Made by a program: the position numbers and the translations under genes. A DNA stretch of 20,000 bases from an uncultured virus (IMG/VR IMGVR_UViG_3300037961_001397). Its lineage: Duplodnaviria; Heunggongvirae; Uroviricota; Caudoviricetes. Below, one piece after another: positions 1-18,364 of the stretch. The first letter of the stretch is position 1, and every line of letters begins with the position of its first letter. Where the stretch lies: IMG/VR virus record IMGVR_UViG_3300037961_001397; one strand, written 5' to 3'. The notes under the pieces are model-generated. The model made no database searches. It was not told the DNA's origin and was given only the letters and a program-made list of their open reading frames with translations.

Positions 1-1
1 T

Positions 2-2334
2 TCTATTGCTGTAGAAGAACTTGCATTAGCTGGTGCAACAGTGCTAACAGGTGGTGGTGCAGCCCCAGTTGCAGCAACAAGAACTGGTTATAATGTTTTA
101 AGACTTGGTAAGCTTGGCTTACAAGTACCTAAATTCTTTTCTAAGAGTAGAGAGTTCTTAAATACACTAAGAAATGTAGATGCAGCTAAAGATTTCTGGT
201 CTGCTGCAAGTACAGGTGGTAAAGTATTAGGGCAGATGTTTACTCCAAACACAATTTATGCAATTAAAAATTTAAAGACAACAAAGAATACAGTTCAAAA
301 TGGTTTTAACTTAGCTAAGATGAGAGCCGGTTTTGGTGGCTTTTATAGAGATCTAAGAGCTGTAAATCTTGCCGTAGCTGAAAGTAAGCTAGAAGGTGGT
401 ATGGTTTACAATGAAATTGTAAGAGAAGGGGTTGATATAATGCAAAACAAATCAGGTGGCACAGTTACTCCTGATGAAATGGCTACTATACAAAGTAAAG
501 CTGCTAAAGGTGCATACTATACATCATTAGCTAATGCACCTATTATTTATGCTAGTAACTGGTTTGTACTAGGAAATGCATTAGGAGGTTTTAATAGATC
601 ACTAGGTAGAGTATTTAATGATAGCTTTAGAAAAGGCTTTGCTGGTAGAATTATAAAAACAAAAGCAACAAGAGATGCTGCAGGTAAATTAAATAAAAAT
701 GTATTTAGTGATGCAGGAGCAGGATTTAAGGGCTGGTTAAAGAAAGTTAGAGCAGGCGGCATAAAAGGTAATGCTGGTATGGCTGCTGCTGCAACTTTAA
801 GATATTTTGCTGCTAATGTTGCTGAGGGTATACAAGAAGTATCACAAGAAGCTGTGTCATCAGCAACAAGAGGTTACTTTACAACTGTACTTGAAGACCC
901 AATGGCTGGTGGTATAGAGTTACAAAATGATATGATCCTATCTGGTATGGGTGATCAGCTTAGTGGAGAAGGTTTTAGTGTATTTATGTCTGGATTCTTG
1001 ATGGGTGGTATTGTACAAGGACCACAAAAATTATTTTTTCAGGGTGTTCCAGCAATCTATGATTACGGTCTTAATCCTTTAGGTATAAATGTTGGTACGC
1101 AAAAACAAAAAGATGCTTTTGCAGAATATAAAAAGAACAAAGAAGAGTTAATCAAGAGTCTTGTAGAAACACATAACAATGCATGGAATAGTCAAGTAGA
1201 TGATCCAACAGCTATGTTTGATCCTAATAAGTTAAACTTTATGGTTCAAAAGCAAGTAGCAGACGCTATGAAGAGCAATGTATTTGATCAAGATAAGTTT
1301 GGTTTTATAGATCAAAAAGACTTTGCTAAGTTTCAGCAGATGTATACTATATTCCAAATGGGTACATCTAATATATTCAGAGGTCAGTTACAAGACTACT
1401 TAACTATGACTGATGAAGAATTAGCAGAAGCATTCCCATCATCTAAAACAGATATTAAACAGGGTAAAATTAGAAGTAGGATTCAGGATATGATCAACAA
1501 CATAGATAAGGTTGAGGATCAATATAATGAAGCTAAGAATAGATTCCAAAACCCTTTTGATAGAACTCAATATAAAAAAGGTACAAGAGAGTATATACAA
1601 GAAGCACTTAAAGAATCAGCATATGAACATGCTAGATATCTTTATATGTTCACTCAAGATGGATTTACACGTGCATTAGAAAGATCTAATTCTATATTTC
1701 AGAATCTTGCAAATGATCCACTATTTGAGAACATGGCGGCTAGTGATATGACAGTGTTGTTAGATCTAGATGCTATAGATAATGAGTTAAGGTTACTTGC
1801 TACTGAGATTATAATCAATGAAGGTGATAATGCTACAACTAGAAAGGATAAAAAGAAAAAAGAAGAAAAGTTAAAAAGACTTACAGCTATCAAAGCTATT
1901 CTTACAGATCCTAAGAACTTAACAAAGAGTGGTGCTTTTGATAGAAGAAAGATTAGCACTCTTAGAAAAGAGTTTTATAACTATGTAAGATATATGGCAT
2001 CTTCTGCTGGATCTTTTGTAGATAATACAAAGATAGATGAGGCACTAAAAGAAGTGGTAGATTATCATGCATTAAAAGATAGAGCTAAGGTTTATGATAA
2101 AGCTATTGAGTATTTACAAAACCCAGAAAGATTTAATGAGATTGTTGATAGACAATTAGAAATCAACAAAGAAATATATAAAAATCTTCAAAAGAGACAC
2201 AAACAAAATATTGAAAAGTATATAGAAATTGTTGAGGCAAATCAATTAGTAAATGAATTAGCTGAGCTTGGTGTCTATGGAGATCCTACAGAAGTCAAGA
2301 ATTTCTTGATGAGTGGTAATGCAAACTATCTAAA
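2..2334 (+). CDS. N-terminal portion (5'-truncated) of giant virion protein; probably the same gene as the RNAP ending at 12673
   Basis: The frame is open from position 2 (SIAVEELALAGATVLTGGGAAPV), so GTG at 41 is probably not the true start. It runs stop-free into the N-gap at 2335. The TAG at 2357-2359 lies after the gap, in a frame that depends on the nominal gap length. Gly/Ala-rich hydrophobic segments and AEGIQEVSQE are followed by a charged helical region. Confidence 0.8.
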
Positions 2335-2344
2335 NNNNNNNNNN
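2335..2344. other. Assembly gap (10 N), causes an artefactual frame change
   Basis: N run with open coding frames on both sides, offset relative to each other. Confidence 0.95.
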
Positions 2345-2346
2345 CA

Positions 2347-3454
2347 GAGCAAGGTTTAGTTGATAAGAGAGTTGATAAAGCAAAGTATGAGCAAATTCAA
2401 AGAAAACTTGATACATATAGAAAGGCTACTGAAGTTGATACAACAGAAGCAACAGAAACTAGTGAGAAACAAGCTCAGGTTGATGCACAAGAAACAAAAA
2501 ATACCCAAGACCAAATCTTAGAAGATAATGAGGTTGATGTAATATTACCTGAAACTAATAATACTCCTATGCTTAATGAGTTATTAGAGAGAAGATATAA
2601 AAGGTATGCATCTACACAGGCTGTAATTGGAGAAAAGGTATTACCATTTGAAGAGTGGAGAAATACAGAAGAAGGCCTTACATTACAAAATACATTTAAT
2701 GCTATAAAGAAAGTATGGGCACAAGGATACTATACTACTGATGCAAAAGGTAATGCAGTATTTGTAGAAGTATCAGAAGCAGATTTAAAATCAGAAAAAG
2801 GGTTTAAGGAATATTTAAATTCAAGAGAGGCTAGAGAAAGTGATTTAATAGCTAGTGTTTTAAAATCTGCTGGTTTAGAAATTTCTGATATTGTAGAGCA
2901 AGAAGAGACATTACCAGAAGAAGGTGATATAGTAAAAGGTGATAAGAATAAAACTATCTATAAGAAAGGTATAATTGCTAATGTTGTTAAGATTACTACA
3001 ATAGATCCTGTATCAGGAGATGCAGTAGCTTTATTCAAATTAGTAGATAGCCAAGGTAATAATTTACCATCAGCATTGTTAGACCTAGTTAGTTCCCAAT
3101 ATGGTACATTTGATAATGCTAGTTCTGCAGTAGCAGCACTTAAGAAGATAGAAAAGACAGCACCGGACTCAGCAGACTTTTTGTTTGATGATGTTGTACT
3201 AAATCAAGGTATGCTTGTATATGACAAGAATGGTAAAGAATTTGTTGTATTAAGCACACCAAAGCAAATACAAGGTGGTTACTTACGTTTAGTTGCATCA
3301 GAAGACAACATTGCTAACGTAAAAGAAAGAGAGAAAAAAGTAATCAAGTTACAAGAGGGTCAGTTTGCAAATAACTATTCTGTACAGGAACTTAAGTTTG
3401 AGGTACTACCTAAGAATGTATCTAGACTGAACATCAGTGAGCCTATTACGCCAT
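2347..3454 (+). CDS. Internal fragment of the giant virion protein (between two gaps)
   Basis: The frame of track ORF 2569..3543 is open upstream to the gap (EQGLVDKRVDKAKYEQIQRKLDTYRKATEVDTTE...) and downstream to the second gap. There is no stop or evident gene start between the gaps. Confidence 0.75.
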
Positions 3455-3529
3455 NNNNNNNNNNNNNNNNNNNNNNNNNNNNNNNNNNNNNNNNNNNNNN
3501 NNNNNNNNNNNNNNNNNNNNNNNNNNNNN
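3455..3529. other. Assembly gap (75 N), causes an artefactual frame change
   Basis: N run with open coding frames on both sides. Confidence 0.95.
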
Positions 3530-6500
3530 ACTATACCCGGTAACCCTTCTAATCCTTATATAAAGATTAAAAGAAGTAAGTATGTTATTGGTCTTAGGAT
3601 AAATAACCCAGATACTCAAGCAAGAGTTAATTTAGTTCTTGAAAGAAATGGTATACCACAAGTAGATAGTGATCAAAATATATTTGCATACCTACCAAAT
3701 CAAAATGTTGAGATGGTAGATCCGCAAGGTAATATTATAGATCCTAGAAACATGTCTAGAGATCAAGCTAATAATACAATATTTGTAAGCAACACACTTA
3801 GTCAACAGATGAGTAAGCCAGATATATTAAAACTTGCTCAAAACAATTTTGCACTAAATGCACTATTAGTATCTACACTTGACTCCCTAGGTATTACATC
3901 AGAAACTACAGCTGTTTTATCTGCTAATGATTTACCGTTTAGTATGTCTATTATTATAGAGGGCGGTGTAATGGATTATGATAATAGTTCTACAAGGTCT
4001 CTAAGAGATTTAAATTATCAGTCTGCAGATAACCAAGGTAACTTCTTAGTCTATGATTTAAAGATGGGCAAGGATGGTAAGAGAACAGAACAATCAATAA
4101 CTAATCTAGAAGGCTCTGAGGCACGTGCTTTAAGAGATCAGGTAGAAGCAGGATTGAAAGCTCAAGGTTTATGGAATCAAATGATAGAAGGTACAGACAG
4201 ATATGTAGCTGCTGTATTATTACCAAATGGTACATATGGTTTAGTAAACTTAAAGGCAGAACAGTTTAGTGCAGAAGACTTGACTGGTTTAGCTACAGAC
4301 TTGGTAGAAAGAGCACAGCTTACACAAAAAGAAAATCTTGATGATAAAGGGAAAGAAAAAGATTTAGCTTATAATAGTGAATATAATGCACAGTTAGGAG
4401 AAAGTTTATTTATTAGTACTATCCCTGGATATACAGTACAATTACAAGTTAATCCTTTTGGTAAAATACAGATGCAGCTCTTTGATAAGACAAGCCAGCA
4501 GCAAGTTGGTAAGACTGTAGAGCTATCTAAGGATAAGATCAATGATACATCTTTAAGTGTATCTGATAAGATGCAAACATTAATTGATTCATTTAATGAA
4601 GAAGCTGACATCAAAGCATCAGGTGTAAGTATCAGTGGTAAGAACTTCAGAAACTCATTTCCTGATGGAACTACGGTAGAAGAAATTATTAGTAAAACAA
4701 GCACTAATGTTACACCGCAGGTTATCAAGCAACAGAAATTAAGACTTACTGCTGACTCAGCAGCAATACAAGCATCAAGAGATGTTGATGCAAATACAGA
4801 TAGAAAAGTAGAGCCTATTGCAAGACCAGAGCCAACAGTAACTATTGCTGAAGAAGCTGAAGAAAGTATATTAGATCTTAGTGAAGAAGAGTTTAATGAT
4901 TATGCAGCTGATGACTTTGTTAATATGCCATCAGAGTTTATGGAGCATATTGTAAATAAAAAGCTAAGAGGTGAAGAACTTAATGATAGAGAAAAACAAG
5001 TAGAAAGAATAAAGCTTAGTGAAATTACACTGGCTGTTGCTAAACGTGGTGGTGAAGGTTCAGTTACTATTGAGACTGAGACAGAAACAGTTGAGAAAAA
5101 AGATTCTCTATCACAAGTTATTAGGCAACTTGATGAGTTAAAAGCTCAATTACTTGAAGGAGTTGATGGTAGAAGTAGAAACAAAGTACTAAGAGAAAAT
5201 AAAGAGTACCAAGATCTTTTAAAGATACGGAAGGCACTTGAGAAAGAAGCAAACAAAGTATTGCCAGCTGAACTATCTAATGAAGATATAGAAGACATAA
5301 ATGCATTTACAGTATGGGCAAGTGATAACTTACCAGACTATATAGATATACAAGACATTGCTACTTTAGGTAATAATCTTAAGGCAGGTGGTGTACGTGT
5401 AGGTGCATTTGTTCTTGGTTTAAATAATATTGCAGGTAATGTAAAAGTATCAGGTACAATATATACAGGTGCAAGAAGCCCATTTAAATATCATGAGGCT
5501 TTCCACGGTGTATTTAGAATGTTGTTATCTGATCAAGATATAGCAAGGTACCGTAGCATTGCTAGAAAAGAAGTACGTGCAAAACTCAGAGCAGAAGGTA
5601 AAAGTTTTGAGAAAGAACTACAAAGATTTAGAAACTCTGCTGATACATATACTAATATGAGCAGAAAGGAACTTGAGAATGAGTACTATGAAGAGTATAT
5701 GGCAGATGAGTTTGAGAAGTTTAAGACAAATCCAAAGAGCACTAAGACAGATGCTAGTATCAAGTCTTTATTTACTAGGATTTTGGATTGGATTAGATCT
5801 GTATTTAGTTCATATAACAAGAACGAGTTACAAACATTATTTGAAAAAATTGACTCAGGTAAATTTAAGGGTGCGTCAATAGCGTCAAATGAGTTTACTG
5901 CACCATTGGTAGAAGGTATAAGTGTAGAAGCAAATGCATTGATACCTTACGCATCAGAAAGATCAGGTGATAAAGTTGGTTATATTTATTTAGATAGTGA
6001 TATAGCAGATCCAATGATCCGTAGTATAGCAGCAATGTTTTTAAATAGAACATCAGCTATAGAAGGAGCATATAATCCACAAGCTGTTTTAAATGAGCTT
6101 ATGGATGATTTTGCTTGGTTATATAGTCCTGACAACCCAACTAACCAAAACAAAGATGAGTTACAAAAGAAAAGACTATCTGAAATAGAATTAGCTTTTG
6201 ATAATTACTCACAAGAAATATTAGAAGAAACTGTTAAGCTTTTAAATATTATTAGTGATCAAGATGTAGATCAAGAATTTACAGTTGATGAATTCCAAGA
6301 TGATACAGGTCTAAGAACTACATCTCAGTATGACAAGGATGCATCACTAATTGGAGGATTTAGATCATTATCTTCTAAATTAAGAGCTTATATTGCAACA
6401 ACAACTGTTGCGTCAACAGACTACTTTGGTAATGAAGAGCTGGTTGATGGTGAAAAATTAATTGTAGCTGTCAACTTTGTAGATGCATATAATGGATTAT

Positions 6501-9500
6501 TAAAATCTGTAAAAAGTATAGAGGATCCATTGAAGATCTTACAGAGCATGTACTTCTTTGGTCAAGACAATCCACAAGCTGGAGCTGTTGTAAATAGAAT
6601 TTTACAAGATGTAGGAATATCAGAAGAAGAATTACTATCTGGTGCTTCATTACCAGTAGAGTTGAAAAATGCACCATTATTACAGTCTATTCTAAAAGGT
6701 TTTGAAAACTTTAGAGTTGACTATATATTTAATGAAAGAGATTCACAAGGTAATATAAGAATCTACAGTGCATCTGAAAGAGATGATATTAACTCACAAC
6801 TTGATAGATGGAGCCAAGCTTTTATTAGTAAAAGAAAACAACTGGTATCTAACCCAAAAAGAAAGAGAGCAACAAAGAACTTATTAGAAGATATATCATC
6901 TGATCTACAAGTATCTGAAAAAGCAATTACTAATGTTAGAATGGAAAATGACTCTAAAAAATACTCAGAGTTATTATTTGATTTAGTTGGTATAAAGCTT
7001 AGTCCTATGTATTTGCAGTTTAGTATGGTGGCTAATAGACCATCTAATAAACTTACTGTAAAACAAAAAGCATTAGTTAATTTATATGCACAAGAAACAC
7101 CTTTATCTGTAGATGATGTAAATCAGTTAAACTTATTACTGCAACAAGATCAGAATATTTTTGCAACAGATGACTCAGGAATGAGCTCAAGACTAAAAGT
7201 AATGAGTATAAATAATGCTCCTTTTGATGAAACAATTGGTGCATCAGTATTTAAAAATCCAAATGGTGATTTGGTATATGCACATCAGCTGCCTACATAC
7301 CATCTTAAAAAAGTAGCATCATTAAATAACCAGGTTGAGTTAGAAAAAATCAAAGACTCTGACCCATATATGGACAACAATTACCTGCTTAATAATAGTG
7401 CCTTTAATAAAATGTCTGAAGAGAATAGACTAAAAGTAACTAGAGTTGCTGGTAGTAAAGTAGGACAGTCATTACAGAGTGAGTCTGATATTAATGATAA
7501 TATATCTGGTGTTACATCAACATCTACATATGGTGATTTTACTCCACAAGAGTTTGCACTTAGTATTATAAATAATTACACTGCTTTATTCAATACAAAA
7601 AGTAATAGAGTACAAACTGTAGAAAGCTTAGATGAAGAGGGTAAAGCTATTGTTACGGCACTAGCTCCTGTATTAATTAGAGTTATGGAAGCTTCTAACA
7701 CAGGGGATATGATTAATCTTCCTGTGATCAAAGCTGTTGAGTTTGTAAATGGTGAAGCGGTATTAACAGAGGAAGCTGTAGATGTATATGTAAATCAAAT
7801 AAGAACTGAATTCTCTAGAATAAATAGAGAATCAAATGAAGCAACACTTACGGGTGAAGAGATACTTGGTTATAATAGTATTGATGGTAGAGCTTATAAG
7901 CTTCACAATACTAGACTTCTATTAAGTAATGAAACTAAAACAAAATTAGAAGGTATTGCAGTATCACAAGGTAAAGATGGGAATCCTATAACTCTTGATG
8001 AGTCACTAAAGTTTGCAGGTATTACTATGACACAACTAAGAAAAGAAGTTGTAGATAATTTAGAAATACAATTTAATGAGTTTCAAGAACTAATTACAGA
8101 ACTTAAGATAAAAGATCAGATATCTAAAAACATAACAGATGGTTTAGTTGTTGCACAAGGTGTATCTAGAAAGAATACTATAGCATCTGCAAAGGCACTG
8201 AACCTAAACTTTGATGAGACACATAACCTAAAACAGATATTCTTTAATGATTGGATTAATAGTAATGCAATAAATGAAATACTGCTTGGTGATCAGGCTG
8301 TATCTCTAAAAGATTCTGTTGATCAAGTTAAAAGAGCTAAGATGCAAAATGCATCATACTATAGTGCATATAGTGCTGTTACTGCTCCTGAACTAGGTGT
8401 AACTCATCCAGTAGAAGATATTAGTTTAGTTACATTAGAAGAGCCTAAGTCTGGTAATATAGATGTTGCAGATGCACAAATGTATATTACTACTAAAGCA
8501 TTTAGATATATGTTCTTTGGTTTTGGTAAGTTAAGTCCAGCACAAGCAAAGCTGATAACAGATGTAGAAAATGGTATACCAATTAGCTCTGATAGAATAT
8601 TTGGTACCGCTGAATCACCTGAAGGTTTAGCTAAAATGCAGGCTATGCTTAACTCTAAAAAGCTTGTTTATGGTGATGGTAGTACATTCTTAAAGATGTC
8701 TGCTTTTGTGCTTACACCTGACTATACTTCAAACTGGGATGGTTCTAAATGGGTTGCTAAACCTAATAGAGTAGCACTTCATAATCTAAGAGTAAAGCTT
8801 GAGGCAATTGAGGATACAAAAGACACTATAAGTATTGCAGCTCCATTGAGTGCAATTAAAATGAAAAAGCAACGTATCAATTCTCTTGATGACCTTAAAA
8901 CAGATAGTCCATTTAGTAATGGTCATACTACACTAGATGCAAGATTTATGGGATTACAAGTTCTGAATCCATCTAATAAGTTAGAAATAGTAGATCCTAC
9001 ACAGATAAAAGAAATTGCAACATCAGAGCAAAAAGATGATGTGTTTGTTGATGGACTTAATATGACTGTTGGAGAAATCAGACAAGCATATAATGATGCT
9101 GTCTCAAGAAGAGTTGTACTAAAATATAAAAACAAAAGAAATTTAATCTTCAGTTTGGATACCGCTCTTGATGAGTTTAGAGTATCTAAAAAAGAAGGAG
9201 CTATTACTCCAAATCTTTCTGCATTCTTAAACTATGCAGTTGCTGGATTAAAAGCATCACAAGCTAGTAGTAACTTATTAGAGTTCTTTTCTACTACAGA
9301 TGGTGTTCAAAATTACAATCTTAATAACCCTATTACTATTAAGAAGTTTGAGCAGTTGTTTTTTAGTTACTTCAGTAGAGGTGTATTATCTGAAAGAACA
9401 CCAGGTGTTTCATTAACTCTTGTTTCTGACTTTGGTAATAGTGTATATAGAAGAGTATTTGAAATAGATGAGAATGGAGTACCAGTAAGATCAGAAGTTA

Positions 9501-12500
9501 TAAGACAAGATGTTTGGGAAAGAATGGCTAATAAGCCTGAGCTTTCTAACATAGAAGATCTTACAAATAACAATATACCTAAAGAAGGTGTGGTTGTATT
9601 AGATAGATTAAGATCTGGCCTTATGGAGTATGATGCACAAGGAAAACCTACAGGGCAAAGATATACTGAGATGATGATGCCAGCTCACCAAAAAGAGGTT
9701 ATGGACTTAATACAAGATACTGATGCACCTATTCCTGATGTAGTAGCTAAAATGTTTGGTGTCAGAATACCATCACAAGATAATCATTCTACAGTAAATA
9801 TGAAGATGGTTGACTTTTTACCAGTATATTTTGGATCATCAGCAATGTTTGCAGAAGAGCTAATAGAAATATCAGGTGCTGACTTTGATATTGATAAAGT
9901 ATTTGCACAGATAAAAGAGTTCTATGTAAAAGATGATCAGTTTATTGAGTATGGTAAAGGTAAAAATGTAAGTGAAAAATATAGTGAGTATGTACAATAT
10001 GTAAATAACAAAGTAGAACAAAAAGGAACTCAGTACTCAGAAGCATTAGGTATCTATAATAATAGAGAAGGAGCTGCAAGAATTCAAAACTCAGTTGATG
10101 ATGTTGAACAAGATATTGCAACTGATGCAGGTTTATCAGAAAATGCATTAAATGCATTAAAGATTCTTGGCCTACCTATTACACAAAAACAGTATGGGGA
10201 GTATGTAGCTAAACATGGAGAGCCATATGAGGCACCTATGAATAATGATGTACTTGACTATAGATATGCACTTATGGGCAACCGTGGTGTTACAGAAGGA
10301 AGTAATCCTATATCATATCAACCAGCAACAACAGATGTGCTTACAGATACCCTTGACTTCTTAGCAAGTCAGTCTGAAGTTTTTGCTGAAAGAGTTCAAG
10401 AAGACAACGTTGATGTAGATAATTTATCAGGTAAGATAAAAGCATTTAGAGCTAACAAGGGTGCTTCTATTGGTGCTATTGTATTACCTAACTTATATTT
10501 AAGTTTATTAACTGAGTACAACATTAAACTGAATGAAAGTATTAGCATTAATGGTAAATCATATAATGACTTTGGTAGAACGCTAGATGATAATGGTCAA
10601 AGAAAACAAGATACATTATCAGCACTAATTACTATGGCAACAGATAATGCAAAAGATAGGCTTGTTGCTAAGCTAGGATTAAATAGACATGCAATGGGTG
10701 TTGTTGCTAACTTGACAGCATTAGGTGTACCTATACAAACTTCTATATTATTAATTAATCATCCAGTCATACAAGATTTATACTCAGAAGCTCTTAATAA
10801 AAAAGATAAGCTTGATCCTGGTATGGATACTTTAGTAAGAAACAAACTTGCAGAGATTAAGAAAGAAGTTAAGGCAGAGCCTGTCAATGATAGATTCTTG
10901 TTAGATGTTATAGATAATCCACAGGATGAAAGTGCAGGAGAACTTAAAGGTGTTCTTTCATTATTTAGCCAAGTATTGAGAATTAAAAATTATACTGGTA
11001 AGATGGGAGCTGTTACAAGTTTATCTAAAGGTTTAGGTAAAAATGTAGCTAGCATAAGAGAAAAATCTACTGATATAAAATCACTATTTGCTCAAGATGC
11101 ACCTATGGATTTGTCTCCTATATATAAGGGCAAGACTTGGCAAAATCAATACTTAAAAATATTCTATCAGATTACAGATGATTTATTACCTGCAACATTC
11201 TTAACTGCAAGTGCATCTTTTAATAGTATATTATCAAGTGTTCTAGACAATATGGATACTAGAGGTATTAGTTTTAATGAAGAGGTAATAGAAAGTATTT
11301 CTACAGATCTATTGTCTTACTTAACAATAAAAGCATACCAACAAAATCAATTAGAGAATGATCAACAAAGGGTTGCTACACTAAGTAATGATATATTATA
11401 TCCAACAGATTATGAATCTATAAATGATATAATAAATAGATTAAAGGGTACAGAAGAAGGTGCAAACAACTTCTTCCTAGACAACTTTATAATTAGCCTG
11501 CGTGCTAATGAAGTTGATAACCAAACAGGTCTTAATCTTGCAAATGCAAATACCTTTAGAAATCTATCAGCTGCACAAAAAGTTGACTTACAAAGTGACT
11601 TTGCAAAACTGTTTGGCTCAGTAAAAACTAAGAATGATGCAATGTCAATTGTAAACTATATAATGGTTAAAGATGGATTGCAAGTTAAATATGCATCACT
11701 TTTAGAAGCTATCAGTCCTTTTGTTATAGGTAATTACCTTGATCAAATTAACAGTGTAGAGAAGGCCCTAAGAGGTGAAGCAAGTTTTGAGTCTGTATTT
11801 GGTATGAGCCAAGAAGAATTACAACAAGAGTTTGAGAATGGATATCTTTTGTCTAATGTTTCTGGTGCAAAGTTATACACGTTTGTACGTAATGAAGTTA
11901 CTGGTAGTTTACCTCAAGGTGTATCAGTAAAAGATGATGTTGTAACTGTAGCTTGGGAAAAAATGGGAATAGAAAACCCACCAAAATATTTAAGAGTAGG
12001 TGTTACAAATATTTTATCAGGTGTTACAAATTATAAAACCTATGGTAGAATAGAGGAATCAAATAAGTATGAGGTTGTAGAGACTATGGGATCAAATCAA
12101 CAAACTGCTATTGGGTTTATGTTTGGTGATAGACCTACTTATAAGAGTGTAAGAGACTATGTAAAAAAGAAGAACCAAGATACTTCTGTAACAGATATAA
12201 CAGATAGCATTGCTATTGATGAAACCAAAGGTATCCAAGAGCAGGTTCTTAAAAATGATAACAGTAATATTGAAGCAACAGAAAGTTCAGTAGAAGTACA
12301 ATTAGATCCTGAAGCAGAAGCTGTAAACTTAGCTAATACAGCAGCATTACTTGAACAACTTGGCATGGATACTGAAGCACAAGATAGAGGTGAGGCAGAG
12401 GCCAATGTTATTGATGATGTTGATCAGTCATTACCAGAAGTCAGTCAAGTTGAAGAACAGCTTATGCTTGATTTTGAAACTGAAATAGATGAGCAATATC

Positions 12501-12673
12501 CAGAGATAGCAGATTTTTGGGATGCAAACATCCAAGGAAATAAAGACGCAATGAGATTGCTAAGAGCTCAAAAAATATTATCTTTAGAAGACTTTATAGG
12601 AAAATATGAAGAAGGCGTTTATGATAATACAGAACAATATTTAGACTTTATTAAGTCTTGTATATTAAAATAA
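3530..12673 (+). CDS. Giant virion-associated DNA-dependent RNA polymerase (crAss-like, single-chain two-barrel) with N-proximal zincin-like metallopeptidase domain; track ORF 3437..12673
   Basis: Catalytic motif GADFDIDK (DFDID 9881-9895) is preceded by FGVRIPSQ (9764-9778). Upstream DVADAQMY (8462-8485), SKKLVY, LKMS and SAIK are consistent with the first barrel, and ATDNAKD (10643-10657) lies downstream. HEAFH at 5492-5506 has a downstream EEYMADEF (5690-5713). Ends at TAA TAA. Confidence 0.9.
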   Translation, partial: TIPGNPSNPYIKIKRSKYVIGLRINNPDTQARVNLVLERNGIPQVDSDQNIFAYLPNQNVEMVDPQGNIIDPRNMSRDQANNTIFVSNTLSQQMSKPDILKLAQNNFALNALLVSTLDSLGITSETTAVLSANDLPFSMSIIIEGGVMDYDNSSTRSLRDLNYQSADNQGNFLVYDLKMGKDGKRTEQSITNLEGSEARALRDQVEAGLKAQGLWNQMIEGTDRYVAAVLLPNGTYGLVNLKAEQFSAEDLTGLATDLVERAQLTQKENLDDKGKEKDLAYNSEYNAQLGESLFISTIPGYTVQLQVNPFGKIQMQLFDKTSQQQVGKTVELSKDKINDTSLSVSDKMQTLIDSFNEEADIKASGVSISGKNFRNSFPDGTTVEEIISKTSTNVTPQVIKQQKLRLTADSAAIQASRDVDANTDRKVEPIARPEPTVTIAEEAEESILDLSEEEFNDYAADDFVNMPSEFMEHIVNKKLRGEELNDREKQVERIKLSEITLAVAKRGGEGSVTIETETETVEKKDSLSQVIRQLDELKAQLLEGVDGRSRNKVLRENKEYQDLLKIRKALEKEANKVLPAELSNEDIEDINAFTVWASDNLPDYIDIQDIATLGNNLKAGGVRVGAFVLGLNNIAGNVKVSGTIYTGARSPFKYHEAFHGVFRMLLSDQDIARYRSIARKEVRAKLRAEGKSFEKELQRFRNSADTYTNMSRKELENEYYEEYMADEFEKFKTNPKSTKTDASIKSLFTRILDWIRSVFSSYNKNELQTLFEKIDSGKFKGASIASNEFTAPLVEGISVEANALIPYASERSGDKVGYIYLDSDIADPMIRSIAAMFLNRTSAIEGAYNPQAVLNELMDDFAWLYSPDNPTNQNKDELQKKRLSEIELAFDNYSQEILEETVKLLNIISDQDVDQEFTVDEFQDDTGLRTTSQYDKDASLIGGFRSLSSKLRAYIATTTVASTDYFGNEELVDGEKLIVAVNFVDAYNGLLKSVKSIEDPLKILQSMYFFGQDNPQAGAVVNRILQDVGISEEELLSGASLPVELKNAPLLQSILKGFENFRVDYIFNERDSQGNIRIYSASERDDINSQLDRWSQAFISKRKQLVSNPKRKRATKNLLEDISSDLQVSEKAITNVRMENDSKKYSELLFDLVGIKLSPMYLQFSMVANRPSNKLTVKQKALVNLYAQETPLSVDDVNQLNLLLQQDQNIFATDDSGMSSRLKVMSINNAPFDETIGASVFKNPNGDLVYAHQLPTYHLKKVASLNNQVELEKIKDSDPYMDNNYLLNNSAFNKMSEENRLKVTRVAGSKVGQSLQSESDINDNISGVTSTSTYGDFTPQEFALSIINNYTALFNTKSNRVQTVESLDEEGKAIVTALAPVLIRVMEASNTGDMINLPVIKAVEFVNGEAVLTEEAVDVYVNQIRTEFSRINRESNEATLTGEEILGYNSIDGRAYKLHNTRLLLSNETKTKLEGIAVSQGKDGNPITLDESLKFAGITMTQLRKEVVDNLEIQFNEFQELITELKIKDQISKNITDGLVVAQGVSRKNTIASAKALNLNFDETHNLKQIFFNDWINSNAINEILLGDQAVSLKDSVDQVKRAKMQNASYYSAYSAVTAPELGVTHPVEDISLVTLEEPKSGNIDVADAQMYITTKAFRYMFFGFGKLSPAQAKLITDVENGIPISSDRIFGTAESPEGLAKMQAMLNSKKLVYGDGSTFLKMSAFVLTPDYTSNWDGSKWVAKPNRVALHNLRVKLEAIEDTKDTISIAAPLSAIKMKKQRINSLDDLKTDSPFSNGHTTLDARFMGLQVLNPSNKLEIVDPTQIKEIATSEQKDDVFVDGLNMTVGEIRQAYNDAVSRRVVLKYKNKRNLIFSLDTALDEFRVSKKEGAITPNLSAFLNYAVAGLKASQASSNLLEFFSTTDGVQNYNLNNPITIKKFEQLFFSYFSRGVLSERTPGVSLTLVSDFGNSVYRRVFEIDENGVPVRSEVIRQDVWERMANKPELSNIEDLTNNNIPKEGVVVLDRLRSGLMEYDAQGKPTGQRYTEMMMPAHQKEVMDLIQDTDAPIPDVVAKMFGVRIPSQDNHSTVNMKMVDFLPVYFGSSAMFAEELIEISGADFDIDKVFAQIKEFYVKDDQFIEYGKGKNVSEKYSEYVQYVNNKVEQKGTQYSEALGIYNNREGAARIQNSVDDVEQDIATDAGLSENALNALKILGLPITQKQYGEYVAKHGEPYEAPMNNDVLDYRYALMGNRGVTEGSNPISYQPATTDVLTDTLDFLASQSEVFAERVQEDNVDVDNLSGKIKAFRANKGASIGAIVLPNLYLSLLTEYNIKLNESISINGKSYNDFGRTLDDNGQRKQDTLSALITMATDNAKDRLVAKLGLNRHAMGVVANLTALGVPIQTSILLINHPVIQDLYSEALNKKDKLDPGMDTLVRNKLAEIKKEVKAEPVNDRFLLDVIDNPQDESAGELKGVLSLFSQVLRIKNYTGKMGAVTSLSKGLGKNVASIREKSTDIKSLFAQDAPMDLSPIYKGKTWQNQYLKIFYQITDDLLPATFLTASASFNSILSSVLDNMDTRGISFNEEVIESISTDLLSYLTIKAYQQNQLENDQQRVATLSNDILYPTDYESINDIINRLKGTEEGANNFFLDNFIISLRANEVDNQTGLNLANANTFRNLSAAQKVDLQSDFAKLFGSVKTKNDAMSIVNYIMVKDGLQVKYASLLEAISPFVIGNYLDQINSVEKALRGEASFESVFGMSQEELQQEFENGYLLSNVSGAKLYTFVRNEVTGSLPQGVSVKDDVVTVAWEKMGIENPPKYLRVGVTNILSGVTNYKTYGRIEESNKYEVVETMGSNQQTAIGFMFGDRPTYKSVRDYVKKKNQDTSVTDITDSIAIDETKGIQEQVLKNDNSNIEATESSVEVQLDPEAEAVNLANTAALLEQLGMDTEAQDRGEAEANVIDDVDQSLPEVSQVEEQLMLDFETEIDEQYPEIADFWDANIQGNKDAMRLLRAQKILSLEDFIGKYEEGVYDNTEQYLDFIKSCILK

Positions 12674-12679
12674 TAAGTT

Positions 12680-15600
12680 ATGGCTACGTGTTTAAATGTA
12701 AATTTACCGGAATACAAAGCACTAAAAGATGTGTATAAAACAGATGTTGATACTGCTAATGTTGTAAATAACTGGCAGAAACTCAACAATGTAGATACAT
12801 TCCCTACAGTTTTAGAAGCACAAGACTTTGTTAGTAATCAAAAACTTGCCTTTTCATTAAGACAAAGACAGTTTAGTGATGCATTGCTAAACAACTTGCG
12901 TAGAGAAAGAATTGGTCATAGTTATCAGGGTAGCTTTTATGTTAATAACTCAAACCCAACTACAAGAGAATATGATGAGATGTATTTAGCATCTAATCTA
13001 AAAAGACTCAAGAGATATCTGCAGATAAATAATATACCAGAAAATAGAGTTACACTAGAAAGAACAGCAAAAACATATAGAGTTACTGTAAATGAAGATA
13101 TGTTTTCAGCAAAAGATATGATAGAGTCTTCTAGATCATGGGATACTCCAAGAGCTAGAGCTGTTGTAATGCATCTTAAGAGAATGTTCCCACAGATAAA
13201 TGTACAAATGTTATCTGTAAGTCAGGCAAGACAAATGTATGAGGGCTTTCCTGAGTGGAAGAAAAACAATGTGCCATTTGATCAGATGAGATCTTTTTAT
13301 GTAGATGGCGTAGCATATTTAATAAAAGGAAGAGTAACTGATGAAGTAGCAATAGAAGAAATGTTACACCCTTTTGTGGATGCAATTAAAATAGATAATG
13401 AAGGGTTATTTAATAGTTTACTAGCAGAAGCAAGAAGCAACTTTCCAGAGATGGTTCAAGAAATTGAAGATTCTTATAATGAGGAGAGAAGTTTTAATGA
13501 TGTAGAAAGAGATTTAGAAATTGTAACACAGGCTTTATCTAGACACTTTAATAAAGAGTATGAGAATCAACCAACCAAAAGATTCTTAGATAGAGTTAAG
13601 GAGGTACTTGAGTGGTTTAGGAATATAATAAACAACTTAAATGAATACCTTACTGGTAGAGCTATACCTGTATCAGAGATAAATGCTAATACAAGTATGA
13701 GTGATATTGCCAAACTTCTTAATACAGAAGGAATACAATTTAAACTTGAGAGTAGAGTAAATGGTAAAGTAAGATATAGCTTAAGCCCTGAAAAGAAAAG
13801 AGTTGTTGATGCAGCTCTTGCTGAGGCAAACGGATTACAGGCAGAGATTATAGACAGACTATTTTTCCAAGCAAGATCAAGTGAGCAAGAGATTGATTCT
13901 TTATCAGCTAACTTAAATGATACGTCATCAGGTACAATTGTTACTCTTAATGAAGAAAATCATACATATGTAGATATTACTAATGGTGAAATATATACAT
14001 CAGTAACAACTGCTATCAAAGGTGAGCTTAAGAACCAAGAAGATGTTCAGCTTAATTTAGATATAGGTAATGATGTAGATGCATTGCTAGATGCTATAGT
14101 AACACATAGAAAACTAGAAGATGTTATTCCTGAGATGAAAATTCTTAGTGAAGAAACAGCTAAAGAAACTTATAACAATCTTTCTACAACTCTTGCTAAC
14201 ATAATGCCAGAGGGATCTGTTGCTTTGTCACAGGTTGTAGTATTTGATGAAGCTACAAAACTTGCAGGTACAGCAGACTTAGTAATTATAGATAAGAATG
14301 GTAAGATAAAAATAGTAGATCTTAAGACCACAAAGAATTCATTAAAAACATTGTCTTATACAGATACTATATCTGGCAGAAGACAAAAGAAGTTATATGA
14401 TAAAGAGTGGGACCTTTCAGAGGATAGCTTACTAAAACAAGCTGGTGTTGATACATTATCTACAAGAGGTCAACACAACTTACAAGTCAACTTATACAGG
14501 AGAATGTTTGAGAACATGGGTTATACTGTATATGATGGAGACTATGCTGCATCTACAATACACTTTGTAGCCGGCATTACTGGTAAGGGTAAAAATCAAA
14601 AGTTTGATGGTAACATAAAAGCAGATCAATGGGTAGATCATCCAGCTTCTCAGAATGCTCTTTATGTTGACAAGCTTGTACCAAGAATTACAGATAATGT
14701 TGAGTCAGAGAAATTAGAGAGTGCTATTGAAAATGCAGAAGATGCAATTTACAAAGGAGAAAAAGAATTCCAAGAAGATGAGTTTGTTGCAGACTCTATT
14801 GATCCAAATGAATATCCTGAATACAATACAATCTTAGGTGCTCTAGAAAACTATAGAATTGGTTTATTAGATAGGAAGAAAGCTCTTGAGCAAATTAAGA
14901 GTAGTATTTTTATGGATAGAACAAAGGAACAAACTCAAGAAAATATTGCAAGTACGTTAGCATACATAGGTATTGCAATAAGTGAGGGTCCTATTTCTAG
15001 ATCTCAAGCTTACTCTTCATTATTAAGAGATGCTTTAAAACAAGTTAGATCTTTTTCTGACTATATACAAGATCCTAAAAACTTTGGTAAGTCAGAGTAT
15101 ATTACCTATGCTCTTAACTTTGATAGATTTATTAAAACCTTTGAGGGACTTTATGCTATTGCAGACTCAAAAGAATTAAATGCTACACAAAGATCCTTAG
15201 TACTTTCTTTACAACTAGAACTAAATAAACTAAGCGGTGGTAGTACAAATCAGCCTGGATTAATAGATACAGCAATTGATAACTATGTAAAAGAGATTAT
15301 AAAAACTAGATCTGGTAGAGACTTTGGAGGAGAAGGAAGTGTATTTACCATGGAAGATTTAGATGAGCTTATGAAGATTGCTCCTGATATCAATGGTACA
15401 GAGTATATGACAAGAGATATGGCAACATCTCCTGATGTCATACTTGCACTAATGGATAAGATTTATAAGGCAAAGAAACAAGAATTACTTGACAGGATTG
15501 GTGACAGAGAAGCACTAATTAGAGCAGCTGGAGCAAAGCTTTTAAAACTATCATCAGAGAGTGATGTTGAAAAGCTTTATGATTTTATGCTTGAGAGAGA

Positions 15601-18364
15601 TTCAGAAGGAAACTTTACTGGGTTCTATACACAAAAAATAGGACAGCAGTATTATAATCTACAACAGGAACTAAGAAATGAGTTGTATGATAATGATGGA
15701 CATCCTTATGAGTATAGAGATATAAAGAATCTTGATGAGGCAAGTGAAGAAGATATAAAATACAATAAAGCATTAGCTGAAAAGAAAAGCAGACTATCAG
15801 AATTTTTTAGAGCAGAGACTAAAGATGAGAATGGTGATCTTGCTGACGGAGAATATCATAGATATACAGATGAATTCAAGGCTGAAAGAGATAAGTTTGA
15901 GTTCTGGGTTCCTGGTAGTGAGGCTAGTCCACATGGTACTTGGTATAGAAAGCCTAGAATATCAGATAGAGACTATGCAATTTATGAAGCAAAGTACTAT
16001 GACTTTATTGGATACACAAAAGCAGTTAGAGTAAATGGTCAACCTACTGGTGCTATAGTAAAAGATCAAACATTTAGATCTCCAAAGCCTGAATATAGAG
16101 AAGCAAGAGAAATAACTAGTAAAGGACAAGATATGCGTAATGCAAAGTATGTAGAGATTATGACCCCTACAGATGCATTAGGTCAAGCTAAAAAAGAATT
16201 CTATGAGTTATTTATAGACTTATATGAGAATGATTTACTTAATAAATTACCAGTGGGTGTAAGAACTCAGATGCTTGGGCGTGTGCCTTTAGTTAAAAAT
16301 AATGTTATTGATGATCTTAAAGGTAAACCAAATCTAGTTACTAAACTATATGCTAAGACTATTGGTAGTAATGCATGGAATATGTTTAAGCAAACATCTC
16401 AACAAAAGGGTGTTGTAACTGATGAGAATGGTAATATGATTAGTACTCTTCCTATCTTCTATACAGGTAGACCAAAGGTTGACGGTGAAATGGAAGTTGT
16501 AGAAAAAGAGATTAGTAATCTACAAGCAGAATATAAAAAGGGCAGAATAGTAAAAGAAAAGTATGATAAAGAGTTAGCAATACTTAATGGTAAGATGTCT
16601 AGACTTAGAGCTACACCATCTCTTGGACAGATCAGTACTGATATGACTACAAGTCTTTTGAAGTTTAGTGCTATGGCACAGAACTATGAGACTATGGGTA
16701 CCATTGAAGATACTCTTAATGCTATGATTAAAGTATTAGAGAATAGAGAGTATACTCCTGCTGATACTTCTATAGAGACAGGTAAATGGTTAGATGGTCA
16801 ATTCAAAAAAATTGGTAAGAAAAAAGGAGAGGGTGTTGAAGCAAATGTTGTAAGAAGAGCCAAGAAGTTTATGTCTATGGTTTATTATGACAATGAACTT
16901 GTATCTAAAGGCTTTTTTGATAAACTTGCTGATGGTTTAATTCAGTTATCTTCTTTGTCATATGTTGCATTTAACCCATTTGGTAACTTTAATAACTATG
17001 TTATTGGTAGAATAAACAATAATATAGAACTGCTTGGTGGTAGATTCTTCAGTAAGGCTGCATTCATGAGAGCAAGTTTAGAGTTTAATAAGAGAGCAAT
17101 ACCAGATCTAATAAAAAGAACAAGTTATAATACTACAGATCTTGCTGACATAGCAACATTGGGTGTTATACCAGGTCTAAATAAATCAGATTATGATCCA
17201 AAGAAACCAAACAGTAAGTATGAGGCATTTGTAGATCTATTTAGAATGATGGATAAGATGTCTGATATACGAGAGCAGTCTGCTTCAACTACAGGAGAAA
17301 AGAGTTGGTTTGCACGTGCTGCTGAATGGGGGTATGTTCTTCAGGATTCAGCAGAATACAATGTACAAACTAAGGTGGGTATGGCCCTTCTTATGGATAC
17401 TACAATAAAAAATAGCACAACTGGTGAGACCCTATCTTTATTTGATGCATTTGACTATGATGCCAAGACACATAAGAATGTCCTTAAAGAAGGATATGAT
17501 ACTATTGTCAGGAAGAACGGTACTGAAGTAGAGTATACAGATCAGTTTAGATATGAATTAAGAAATCAAATAAGAGAAGTTAACAAACAAATACATGGTA
17601 ACTATGCAAGAGAAGATAGAATGGTTATGCAAAGCACAACTATTGGTAATCTTGCGGCTCAGTTCCATAAGTGGGTTGCTCCAGCTATTAGAGCAAGATA
17701 CCAAAGAGAATACTTTGATGAGAACTTAGGATGGATGGAAGGTAGATATATATCATTCCTTAAGTTTTTATCTTATATGAAGAATGAAATATCTAAAGGT
17801 AACTTACAGATGAGTAGTTATGGTAAAGGTTTCTTAAAAGAGTATGGCTTCACTGGTGAAGGAGGAAACAGAGATCAGAGAGCAAAGAATAAATTGTTTG
17901 GTTTCTACAGAACTATGGGTGAGATTGGTATTATGTCATCCGTATTCTTGCTGAGTCAGATATTAAACTCAATATTAGCAGGAGAAGATGATGATGATGA
18001 GGTAACTAAGAGATTTAAAAATATGGCCAAGTATCAAGCGGATAGAACATATAAAGAACTTATTATGTTTACGCCACTACCTCCGGGGTTACAGCAACAA
18101 TTCCAGATGTTAAAATCACCTATAGCTTCTACTAGAACATTAGGTGAAATAGGTGAGGCATTATCATTAACTGTAATGACGCCTCTTGCATACATGGTAC
18201 AAAGTGAAAAAGATTTCTATGCTAACTCTGAGTATGTATACCAGAACAAGCCTAGAAAGGGAGAGCTCAAGGTTTATAAGAACTGGAAAGATGCTGTTCC
18301 TATTTTATATACTATTCAGAAGTGGGATGCTTACTTAAACATGGAAGATTTCTTTATTAAGTAA
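12680..18364 (+). CDS. Giant virion/cargo protein (1894 aa) with degenerate zincin-like domain and PD-(D/E)xK nuclease-like domain
   Basis: AIEEMLHPFVDAI (13355-13372) is followed by LEIVTQAL. The motif series HTY...YTSVTT (13961-14011), AGTADLVII...IVDLKT (14264-14329) and LQVNLY (14480-14497) matches RecB/lambda-exonuclease-type nucleases. Adjacent to the RNAP gene, like the large crAss-like virion proteins. Confidence 0.8.
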   Translation: MATCLNVNLPEYKALKDVYKTDVDTANVVNNWQKLNNVDTFPTVLEAQDFVSNQKLAFSLRQRQFSDALLNNLRRERIGHSYQGSFYVNNSNPTTREYDEMYLASNLKRLKRYLQINNIPENRVTLERTAKTYRVTVNEDMFSAKDMIESSRSWDTPRARAVVMHLKRMFPQINVQMLSVSQARQMYEGFPEWKKNNVPFDQMRSFYVDGVAYLIKGRVTDEVAIEEMLHPFVDAIKIDNEGLFNSLLAEARSNFPEMVQEIEDSYNEERSFNDVERDLEIVTQALSRHFNKEYENQPTKRFLDRVKEVLEWFRNIINNLNEYLTGRAIPVSEINANTSMSDIAKLLNTEGIQFKLESRVNGKVRYSLSPEKKRVVDAALAEANGLQAEIIDRLFFQARSSEQEIDSLSANLNDTSSGTIVTLNEENHTYVDITNGEIYTSVTTAIKGELKNQEDVQLNLDIGNDVDALLDAIVTHRKLEDVIPEMKILSEETAKETYNNLSTTLANIMPEGSVALSQVVVFDEATKLAGTADLVIIDKNGKIKIVDLKTTKNSLKTLSYTDTISGRRQKKLYDKEWDLSEDSLLKQAGVDTLSTRGQHNLQVNLYRRMFENMGYTVYDGDYAASTIHFVAGITGKGKNQKFDGNIKADQWVDHPASQNALYVDKLVPRITDNVESEKLESAIENAEDAIYKGEKEFQEDEFVADSIDPNEYPEYNTILGALENYRIGLLDRKKALEQIKSSIFMDRTKEQTQENIASTLAYIGIAISEGPISRSQAYSSLLRDALKQVRSFSDYIQDPKNFGKSEYITYALNFDRFIKTFEGLYAIADSKELNATQRSLVLSLQLELNKLSGGSTNQPGLIDTAIDNYVKEIIKTRSGRDFGGEGSVFTMEDLDELMKIAPDINGTEYMTRDMATSPDVILALMDKIYKAKKQELLDRIGDREALIRAAGAKLLKLSSESDVEKLYDFMLERDSEGNFTGFYTQKIGQQYYNLQQELRNELYDNDGHPYEYRDIKNLDEASEEDIKYNKALAEKKSRLSEFFRAETKDENGDLADGEYHRYTDEFKAERDKFEFWVPGSEASPHGTWYRKPRISDRDYAIYEAKYYDFIGYTKAVRVNGQPTGAIVKDQTFRSPKPEYREAREITSKGQDMRNAKYVEIMTPTDALGQAKKEFYELFIDLYENDLLNKLPVGVRTQMLGRVPLVKNNVIDDLKGKPNLVTKLYAKTIGSNAWNMFKQTSQQKGVVTDENGNMISTLPIFYTGRPKVDGEMEVVEKEISNLQAEYKKGRIVKEKYDKELAILNGKMSRLRATPSLGQISTDMTTSLLKFSAMAQNYETMGTIEDTLNAMIKVLENREYTPADTSIETGKWLDGQFKKIGKKKGEGVEANVVRRAKKFMSMVYYDNELVSKGFFDKLADGLIQLSSLSYVAFNPFGNFNNYVIGRINNNIELLGGRFFSKAAFMRASLEFNKRAIPDLIKRTSYNTTDLADIATLGVIPGLNKSDYDPKKPNSKYEAFVDLFRMMDKMSDIREQSASTTGEKSWFARAAEWGYVLQDSAEYNVQTKVGMALLMDTTIKNSTTGETLSLFDAFDYDAKTHKNVLKEGYDTIVRKNGTEVEYTDQFRYELRNQIREVNKQIHGNYAREDRMVMQSTTIGNLAAQFHKWVAPAIRARYQREYFDENLGWMEGRYISFLKFLSYMKNEISKGNLQMSSYGKGFLKEYGFTGEGGNRDQRAKNKLFGFYRTMGEIGIMSSVFLLSQILNSILAGEDDDDEVTKRFKNMAKYQADRTYKELIMFTPLPPGLQQQFQMLKSPIASTRTLGEIGEALSLTVMTPLAYMVQSEKDFYANSEYVYQNKPRKGELKVYKNWKDAVPILYTIQKWDAYLNMEDFFIK

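Follow-up and report, generated by a model that had tools for sequence, protein, structure and literature searches.

How a phage stores an RNA polymerase (RNAP) and its partner proteins, some 700 kDa in all, and how these then pass through a narrow tail, are questions raised by the junction of two giant genes of a crAss-like phage. The stretch of DNA analysed (20,000 nucleotides, one strand; hereafter the window) belongs to an uncultured member of the Caudoviricetes, IMG/VR record IMGVR_UViG_3300037961_001397, and the two open reading frames (ORFs) that meet within it, P1 and P2, have one cysteine each, the first at the tail end of P1 and the second at the head of P2. Crassviruses are the most abundant viruses of the human gut. 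The facing cysteines are kept among the relatives of these genes, follow the way in which the genes are split or fused, and probably reflect an interchain disulfide that staples the tail of P1 to the N-terminal domain of P2 in the virion.

P1 is the 3' part of a giant ORF (1..12673, + strand, like every window feature given below), recognised from ORF calls, a six-frame cysteine count, blastp and the match to a relative's genome, G003. Its frame opens before base 1 of the window and closes at a TAA stop (12671-12673), which is the start of a double stop and 6-nucleotide spacer (TAA TAA GTT, 12671..12679, by reading of the sequence) ahead of P2 (12680..18364, 1894 residues), which lies in the same frame. 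The sole cysteine of P1 is a TGT codon at 12659..12661, residue 4488 of 4491 and fourth from the C-terminus (...FIKSCILK), and that of P2 is a TGT codon at 12689..12691, residue 4 (MATCLNV...), invariant in alignments A1, A2, A5 and A6. Both positions had been picked out by a first-pass annotation of the window, made from the letters alone, and were confirmed by their codons and by the six-frame count, in which P2 had exactly one cysteine and the readable parts of the giant frame had none in 785 residues, none in about 400 (true frame) and one in 3080. Two runs of N (10 and 75 bases) inside the giant ORF shift its frame and are gaps, not real gene ends. The concern that further cysteines might lie in these gaps or in the unseen N-terminus, raised by the annotation itself, was settled by G003, a stand-in from IMG/VR (complete, 113,202 bp, direct terminal repeats, 98-100% protein identity to the window). 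Its P1 ORF is intact, with 4491 residues and a sole cysteine at 4488, so that the gaps and the N-terminus add none, and its next ORF has 1894 residues and Cys4. The annotation's two cysteines thus stand, and the length over which they were counted, given there as about 6100 residues, becomes 6385.

The scarcity is pronounced. At the 1.28% cysteine of the 74 other ORFs of G003, about 82 would be expected in 6385 residues versus the two observed, and the chance that two randomly placed cysteines would both fall within the eight junction-flanking residues is about 1.4e-6 by an arithmetic estimate. Seven consecutive G003 ORFs (476, 557, 705, 956, 1080, 4491 and 1894 residues) share just 4 cysteines in 10,159 residues, the genome mean being 0.93%. 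Histidine (0.5-0.8%) and tryptophan (0.4-0.8%) are low alongside cysteine in the cargo encoded at window 1-18364, many other G003 ORFs having about 1-3%.

Comparison with cultured crAss-like phages gave both proteins an identity. P1 residues 2064-2226 match the C-terminal part of crAss001 gp47 (blastp E 1.6e-6), residues 3476-3889 match crAss001 gp50 1391-1828 (E 1.5e-18), and residues 3471-4042 match 1265-1863 of phi14:2 gp66 (g066), the crystallised virion RNAP (E 4.5e-10). Because matches to both gp47 and gp50/g066 were obtained, P1 is, by sequence, a fusion of a gp47/g067-like part with a gp50/gp66-like part, and carries the virion RNAP in its C-terminal half. The RNAP label of the first-pass annotation is borne out by the only DFDxD motif in P1, DFDID (9881..9895, P1 residue 3562), which aligns with gp66 residue 1361 and gp50 residue 1483; DFDxD is the catalytic motif of gp66 in the available text of the Drobysheva 2020 preprint (10.1101/2020.03.07.982082). 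P2 matches crAss001 gp49 (E 1.6e-36) and phi14:2 gp65 (g065; E 1.1e-5), has the same gene order as these, directly downstream of the RNAP gene, and on these homologies is a gp49/gp65-type RNAP-associated protein. P1 and P2 are therefore homologous to the trios gp47/gp50/gp49 of crAss001 and gp67/gp66/gp65 of phi14:2, the first two members of which are separate proteins there and are fused into one of 4491 residues in the window. All members of both trios were reported as detected in virions by mass spectrometry (PMC10172136; 10.1101/2020.03.07.982082), and the same sources describe phages in which trio proteins are fused. P1 and P2 are most likely packed and injected by the window phage.

That the terminal cysteines are no accident of one genome was evident from relatives near and far. 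A profile of the P2 N-terminus retrieved 147 relatives from IMG/VR, and the best 80 were taken, 77 of which include the junction. Both cysteines were kept in all 77 (40-100% identity), always as exactly one P2 cysteine at residue 3-4 and one P1 cysteine 2-5 residues from the end, with no other in up to 3331 residues upstream; an extra "cysteine" in L020 was an artefact at the edge of a frameshift. The remaining three loci had no P2 N-terminus and no cysteine. A profile of the conserved P2 C-terminus gave a broader sample, 2428 clusters at 50% identity, the best 150 of which were used; among the 100 of these that were at least 1400 residues long and began with methionine, 96 had a cysteine at residue 3-5, and the P2-type cysteine was retained down to about 20% protein identity. 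Elsewhere in the 96 proteins cysteine made up 55 of 183,909 residues (0.030%), 69 had a single cysteine in all, and none had one within its last 12 residues. A 97th, P0259, owed its apparent lack to a mis-called start (the corrected protein opens MIDRC, and its upstream neighbour ends ...KHCK), and another exception, P0248, is an all-fused protein of 4452 residues.

The crAss001 branch told the same story with its own set of ends. Single-protein locus scans returned just 4 loci and 1 locus. Of 120 close gp50 homologues, 119 had an N-terminal cysteine (the exception is truncated) and all 120 a C-terminal one, and 80 crAss001-like loci had an N-terminal cysteine in 80/80 gp49-like and 71/71 assessable gp50-like proteins and a C-terminal one in 74/75 gp47-like proteins. 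The outer ends were bare, with cysteine in 0/73 gp47-like N-termini and 0/79 gp49-like C-termini. Fourteen named phages repeated the pattern, each with cysteine pairs at its breaks: the Suoliviridae cr118_1, cr109_1, cr50_1, cr6_1 and cr56_1; the Steigviridae crAss001, DAC15 and phi14:2; the Intestiviridae crAss002, cr3_1 and cr11_1; cr127_1 of the Crevaviridae; and, outside the Crassvirales, Cellulophaga phage phi17:2 and Leptolyngbya phage Lbo-JY46. Every one of their 18 protein breaks has a cysteine on both sides, and the outermost ends (the first protein's N-terminus and the last protein's C-terminus) are free of it. The clearest case is phi14:2, in which the one cysteine of gp67 is its last residue, gp66 has cysteines at residues 3 and 2179 of 2180, and the only cysteine of gp65 is residue 3. 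The pattern is genuine and directional, is under strong selection and belongs to the real ends of proteins.

Two further oddities of these genomes were noted. In crAss002 the cysteine has number 35 in the ORF as annotated, or number 3 if translation begins at an internal ATG; this ATG in gp33 (L104 9270-9370) gives MSCTPSNPKL, which fits the N-terminal motif of the relatives, and the 170-nucleotide gap after gp32 has a G+C-rich hairpin upstream, so from the sequence the true start probably lies 32 codons downstream of the annotated one. The giant cargo genes of cr109_1 (L098), cr6_1 (L100) and cr56_1 (L101) contain 26-70 in-frame stops under table 11 with the terminal cysteines still present; the stops are in keeping with the stop-codon recoding known from some crAss-like lineages.

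The pattern also follows the cutting and joining of the genes. In crAss001, DAC15 and phi14:2, where the gp47-like protein and the RNAP are split, an additional cysteine pair stands at that split, and in crAss001 and DAC15 it does so with the two genes on opposite strands, which excludes a nucleotide-level or translational-coupling signal. Middle proteins of split chains have cysteines at both ends, as in phi14:2 gp66 and in phi17:2, whose chain (L108 7303-20807) runs through gp039, gp038 and gp036, with a 119-residue gene, gp037, between the last two; gp038 is a link protein of 517 residues with cysteines at residues 4 and 516 only. Conversely, P1, which in the window clade is a gp47-like/gp50-like fusion, has no internal cysteine, and no pair was present at the joints, whose positions are roughly mapped estimates, of four RNAP+gp49 fusions and the all-fused P0248. 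A negative control was provided by several crAss001-like loci in which the gp50 ORF is broken with no cysteine at the break (L125, L142, L157, L166, L176, L180, L182). In three inspected, a 193-codon ORF lies between the halves, the same ORF occurring in the gaps of L157 and L166, and the insert of L125 (6192-7058) matches a group I intron (Rfam Intron_gpI, 42.9 bits, E 2.7e-9, the gathering score being 50 bits) and encodes an HNH/NUMOD1 homing endonuclease; intron-broken gp50 serves as a control because the protein there is continuous.

Two other ideas were set aside. Fusion of P1 and P2 by readthrough or frameshifting was rejected, since the spacer (-1 to 26 nucleotides) and the relative frame vary among relatives, as was a CaaX-type reading of CILK, since 0 to 8 residues follow the cysteine among relatives. 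P0271, the sole longer P2 relative in a search for fused forms, is N-truncated, with many internal cysteines, and was uninformative.

Where the two ends might meet was approached with a complex model of the last 300 residues of P1 and the first 300 of P2, made with an 18-row alignment of each, in three runs with three controls. The last 75 or so residues of P1 form a conserved C-terminal tail module (12446..12670, alignment A4) that ends K-x-C-x(1-4), the 225 residues before it being highly variable. The interface score ipSAE was 0.34, 0.62 and 0.69 (median 0.62), versus 0.00 for the best of the controls; the pass mark for this score is reached by 116/157 solved complexes and 2/215 mismatched pairs, a calibration that is approximate with custom alignments, of a score that is not equal to binding. 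The partner predicted local distance difference test (pLDDT) was no lower than 66, and the runs had 34% or more of contacts in common. The P1 segment contributes residues 242-298 to the predicted interface, and in the model P2 residue 4 touches segment residue 297, that is, the two cysteines are in contact. As searches of the PDB gave no solved relative, the model was not copied from a known structure.

A bond of just this kind has been seen in another phage, contrary to the first-pass annotation, which knew of no description of such a mechanism. In the available text of the cryo-electron microscopy (cryo-EM) study of cyanopodophage A4 (PNAS 2025, PMC12002296), gp27 Cys1715, third from the end, is joined by a disulfide to gp26 Cys5, and the bond is described as stabilising a pre-ejectosome or pentameric ring, not as part of a thread. 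The genome of Anabaena phage A-4L agrees, with one cysteine each in gp27 (1717 residues, at 1715) and gp26 (1114 residues, at 5) and none in gp29. A4 (Saffermanviridae) is like the window in having adjacent genes for large ejection proteins with sole cysteines at -3 and residue 5 (-4 and residue 4 in the window), and in its neighbouring ejection proteins being free or nearly free of cysteine. In the same text a C-terminal helix of one A4 ejection protein inserts into the next; for the window, a docking of the P1 tail on P2 is predicted by the model. A4 differs in having a single pair and no RNAP in the chain, and in that its bond was seen, whereas that of the crAss-like phages would follow from sequence and model. 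The parts of the A4 paper available give no cross-phage rule, no link to fusion or splitting and no thread model.

How, then, would the facing cysteines work? The cysteine pattern, its conservation and its covariation with fusion and splitting are observed, and an interface with the cysteines touching is predicted. On the reading that we favour, P1 and P2 would be packed in the capsid as cysteine-purged cargo, the conserved C-terminal tail of P1 would dock on the N-terminal domain of P2, and, once the particle becomes oxidising, P1 Cys4488 and P2 Cys4 would form the interchain disulfide and join the two proteins covalently into a single unit of about 6,385 residues. Where the chain is divided among three or four genes, each division would be bridged likewise by a cysteine pair, and in fused genes a peptide bond would replace the disulfide. 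The bond may set the stoichiometry and order in which the cargo assembles, or may let the proteins exit as one thread, and reduction of the thiols in the host cytoplasm would then separate them. The first-pass annotation had proposed such a link between facing termini, and it has since gained the conservation and co-occurrence of the cysteines (77/77 junctions, 96/100 representatives, 18/18 breaks in named phages), their presence at every split and absence at fused joints (P1, the RNAP+gp49 fusions and P0248), and a modelled contact with a median ipSAE of 0.62 versus 0.00 in the best control; the bond itself has been seen by biochemistry or structure in no crAss-like phage.

This last point is the first of several that weigh against an interchain disulfide. 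Phages assemble in a reducing cytoplasm, and the gut relatives live without oxygen. Two representatives, P0133 and P0222, have no N-terminal cysteine (searches for the locus of P0133 were empty, and neither its first 900 residues nor the first 300 of P0222 match a P1 tail), one gp47-like ORF of the 75, that of L162, lacks its C-terminal cysteine, and in Lbo-JY46 (L107 2626-21629) a protein of 674 residues has a lone Cys5 with no partner cysteine in its upstream neighbour. The positions float, from the last residue to the ninth from the end at C-termini and from residue 3 to 6 at N-termini, and every terminal cysteine codon in 38 distinct marine junctions is TGT, so synonymous sites offer no evidence. 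One model run scored just 0.34, and the approximate calibration of that score has been mentioned. A4 is an analogue and not a shown relative, since no sequence or fold similarity to gp26/gp27 was found; blastp of A-4L gp25-gp29, gp31, gp33 and gp35, with P1, P2 and the proteins of crAss, Lbo and phi17:2 as targets, had no hit at E 0.01. Finally, the crAss001 cargo proteins were not resolved in the map, going by the available text of its structural study (Bayfield 2023, PMC10172136). The same text reports disulfides in crAss001 virions, in gp57 and the tail proteins, and mass spectrometry of both reduced and unreduced samples.

Three other explanations compete with a disulfide between the two chains. 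The one that survives best, though we think it unlikely, is that the terminal cysteines act separately: Cys4 of P2 as a "cysteine switch" on the zinc of a zincin-like domain, or the cysteines in dimers of the same protein or in links to some other virion protein. P2 does have an invariant EEMLHP (13355..13372), which marks a candidate zincin-like domain with weak fold matches to zinc metalloproteases (E 0.06-0.4), such a domain is reported for gp65 orthologues in the available preprint text (10.1101/2020.03.07.982082), and the lone Cys5 of Lbo-JY46, which has no adjacent partner, would suit it. It leaves unexplained, however, why cysteine stands on both sides of every break and at neither outer end, and why RNAP proteins without a zincin motif have a cysteine pair; moreover, in the model Cys4 meets the P1 cysteine, and P2 residues 226-231 lie outside the interface.

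Slightly less probable again is that the termini dock non-covalently and that their two thiols share a metal ion, such as zinc or iron, with no disulfide. The first-pass annotation had left room for such a shared metal site. A metal bridge and a disulfide suit the pattern, its covariation and the modelled contact equally well, but the bridge would have one cysteine per side with no conserved histidine, aspartate or second cysteine beside either, in cargo in which histidine is itself depleted (0.5-0.8%), and in the sole solved analogue, A4, the density was modelled as a disulfide in the text available. The idea that the cysteines have no function, being tolerated at the floppy ends of purged bodies or written into a junction nucleotide signal through TGT, draws on positions that float by a few residues, the uniform use of TGT in all codons checked and the shared frame of the window genes with TAA TAA GTT between them, but is highly improbable and, given the outer-end counts, close to refuted, because equally free outer termini lack cysteine (14 named phages; 0/73, 0/79, 0/96), pairs are kept in genes on opposite strands, neither spacer length nor relative frame is constant, and the cysteines persist down to about 20% identity.

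The N4-like phages offer a second comparison. Schitoviridae (N4, DEV) eject a giant virion RNAP and two ejection proteins in which cysteine is suppressed, which the available text of PMC11445570 ascribes to passage through the periplasm and the avoidance of disulfide formation there; the statement of the first-pass annotation that the N4 virion RNAP lacks cysteines agrees with this suppression. The window phage is like them in having a giant virion RNAP, most likely ejected into the host, and strong cysteine suppression in the cargo proteins, and unlike them in keeping a conserved terminal pair, the Schitoviridae having essentially no cysteine and lacking terminal pairs. The one chain of the N4 polymerase comprises an N-terminal domain, core and C-terminal domain, which may correspond to the three crass proteins, and the fold class of the Schitoviridae RNAP is unlike the crass one (2026, PMC13434306).

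What is new here is an order-wide, fusion-linked, cysteine-paired chain that includes the virion RNAP, for which our searches met no published description, either for the Crassvirales or as a general rule. We found no account of the terminal cysteines of crass cargo, although supplementary tables may hold relevant data; in the text available, the word "cysteine" is absent from both PMC10172136 and the preprint 10.1101/2020.03.07.982082, "disulfide" is absent from the latter, and the former is silent on cargo disulfides. A larger proposal, which we hold tentatively and with more doubt than belief, is that terminal-only cysteines mark a redox-gated delivery device, in which two to four giant cargo proteins including the virion RNAP would form a disulfide-joined thread of about 6,000-7,000 residues, be packed 1:1, leave through the tail in order and be cut apart by reduction in the cytoplasm, with fusion and disulfide interchangeable, and that the device extends beyond the Crassvirales to phi17:2, Lbo-JY46 and A4. 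If true, it would account for why lineages differ in having the same three modules joined or separate, link the three crass proteins to the N4 polymerase with its one chain, and generalise the single disulfide of A4. Its rule reads the order and connectivity of cargo from sequence and gives a concrete model that can be tested on the cultured phi14:2, crAss001 and DAC15, and terminal-only cysteines would be a cheap marker for ejected proteins and their order in the genomes of uncultured phages.

Other features of P2 and its surroundings deserve mention. Downstream of the candidate zincin-like domain, P2 has a PD-(D/E)XK-like segment (14267..14560; GTADL...DLKTTKNS...QHNLQVNLYRRM) that matches Pfam PDDEXK_1 at E 9.5e-4 and 19.6 bits, under the 22-bit cut-off, with motifs conserved in alignment A1. 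Beyond this sub-threshold hit, the five window ORFs matched nothing in scans with PHROGs and Pfam, and P2 had no zincin match in Pfam. Searches with the C-terminal 500 residues of P1 against the named phages (tblastn), with its last 3330 residues against PDB chains (phmmer, E 0.01), with the P2 sequence against the PDB, with the P2 profile against PDB chains (E 1) and with a model of the P2 N-terminus (mean pLDDT 80.7) in Foldseek (E 0.001) all gave no match. For the fused forms, the available preprint text proposes cleavage by the zincin-like protease (10.1101/2020.03.07.982082). The C-terminus of P2 (window 18338-18361) ends [DN]-F-[YFW]-[IV]-K, as do most of its distant homologues (representatives P0122-P0269), a motif that would be a second conserved end signal of the P2 family.

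The five G003 ORFs upstream of P1 (476-1080 residues; 111773-113203 and 184-10201) are free of cysteine except for a Cys137/Cys142 pair in the ORF of 557 residues. Close pairs also occur in crAss001 gp45 (390, 398), phi14:2 g069 (369, 378), DAC15 gene 59 (211/219, 273/281) and A-4L gp28 (1036, 1039), and such a pair may be a small internal loop or a metal site in a membrane-acting cargo protein. On the other side of P2, an ORF of 413 residues (window 18472-19713) starts MKNYLSLLVLILLLCIPNFSYGQ, which resembles a signal peptide, has its only cysteine at residue 15 and is rich in tyrosine, tryptophan and glycine; its sequence suggests a secreted or lipid-anchored protein outside the cysteine-purged block. 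The ORF that follows it in G003 (186 residues) also begins MKKLLLLI and has a cysteine at residue 16.

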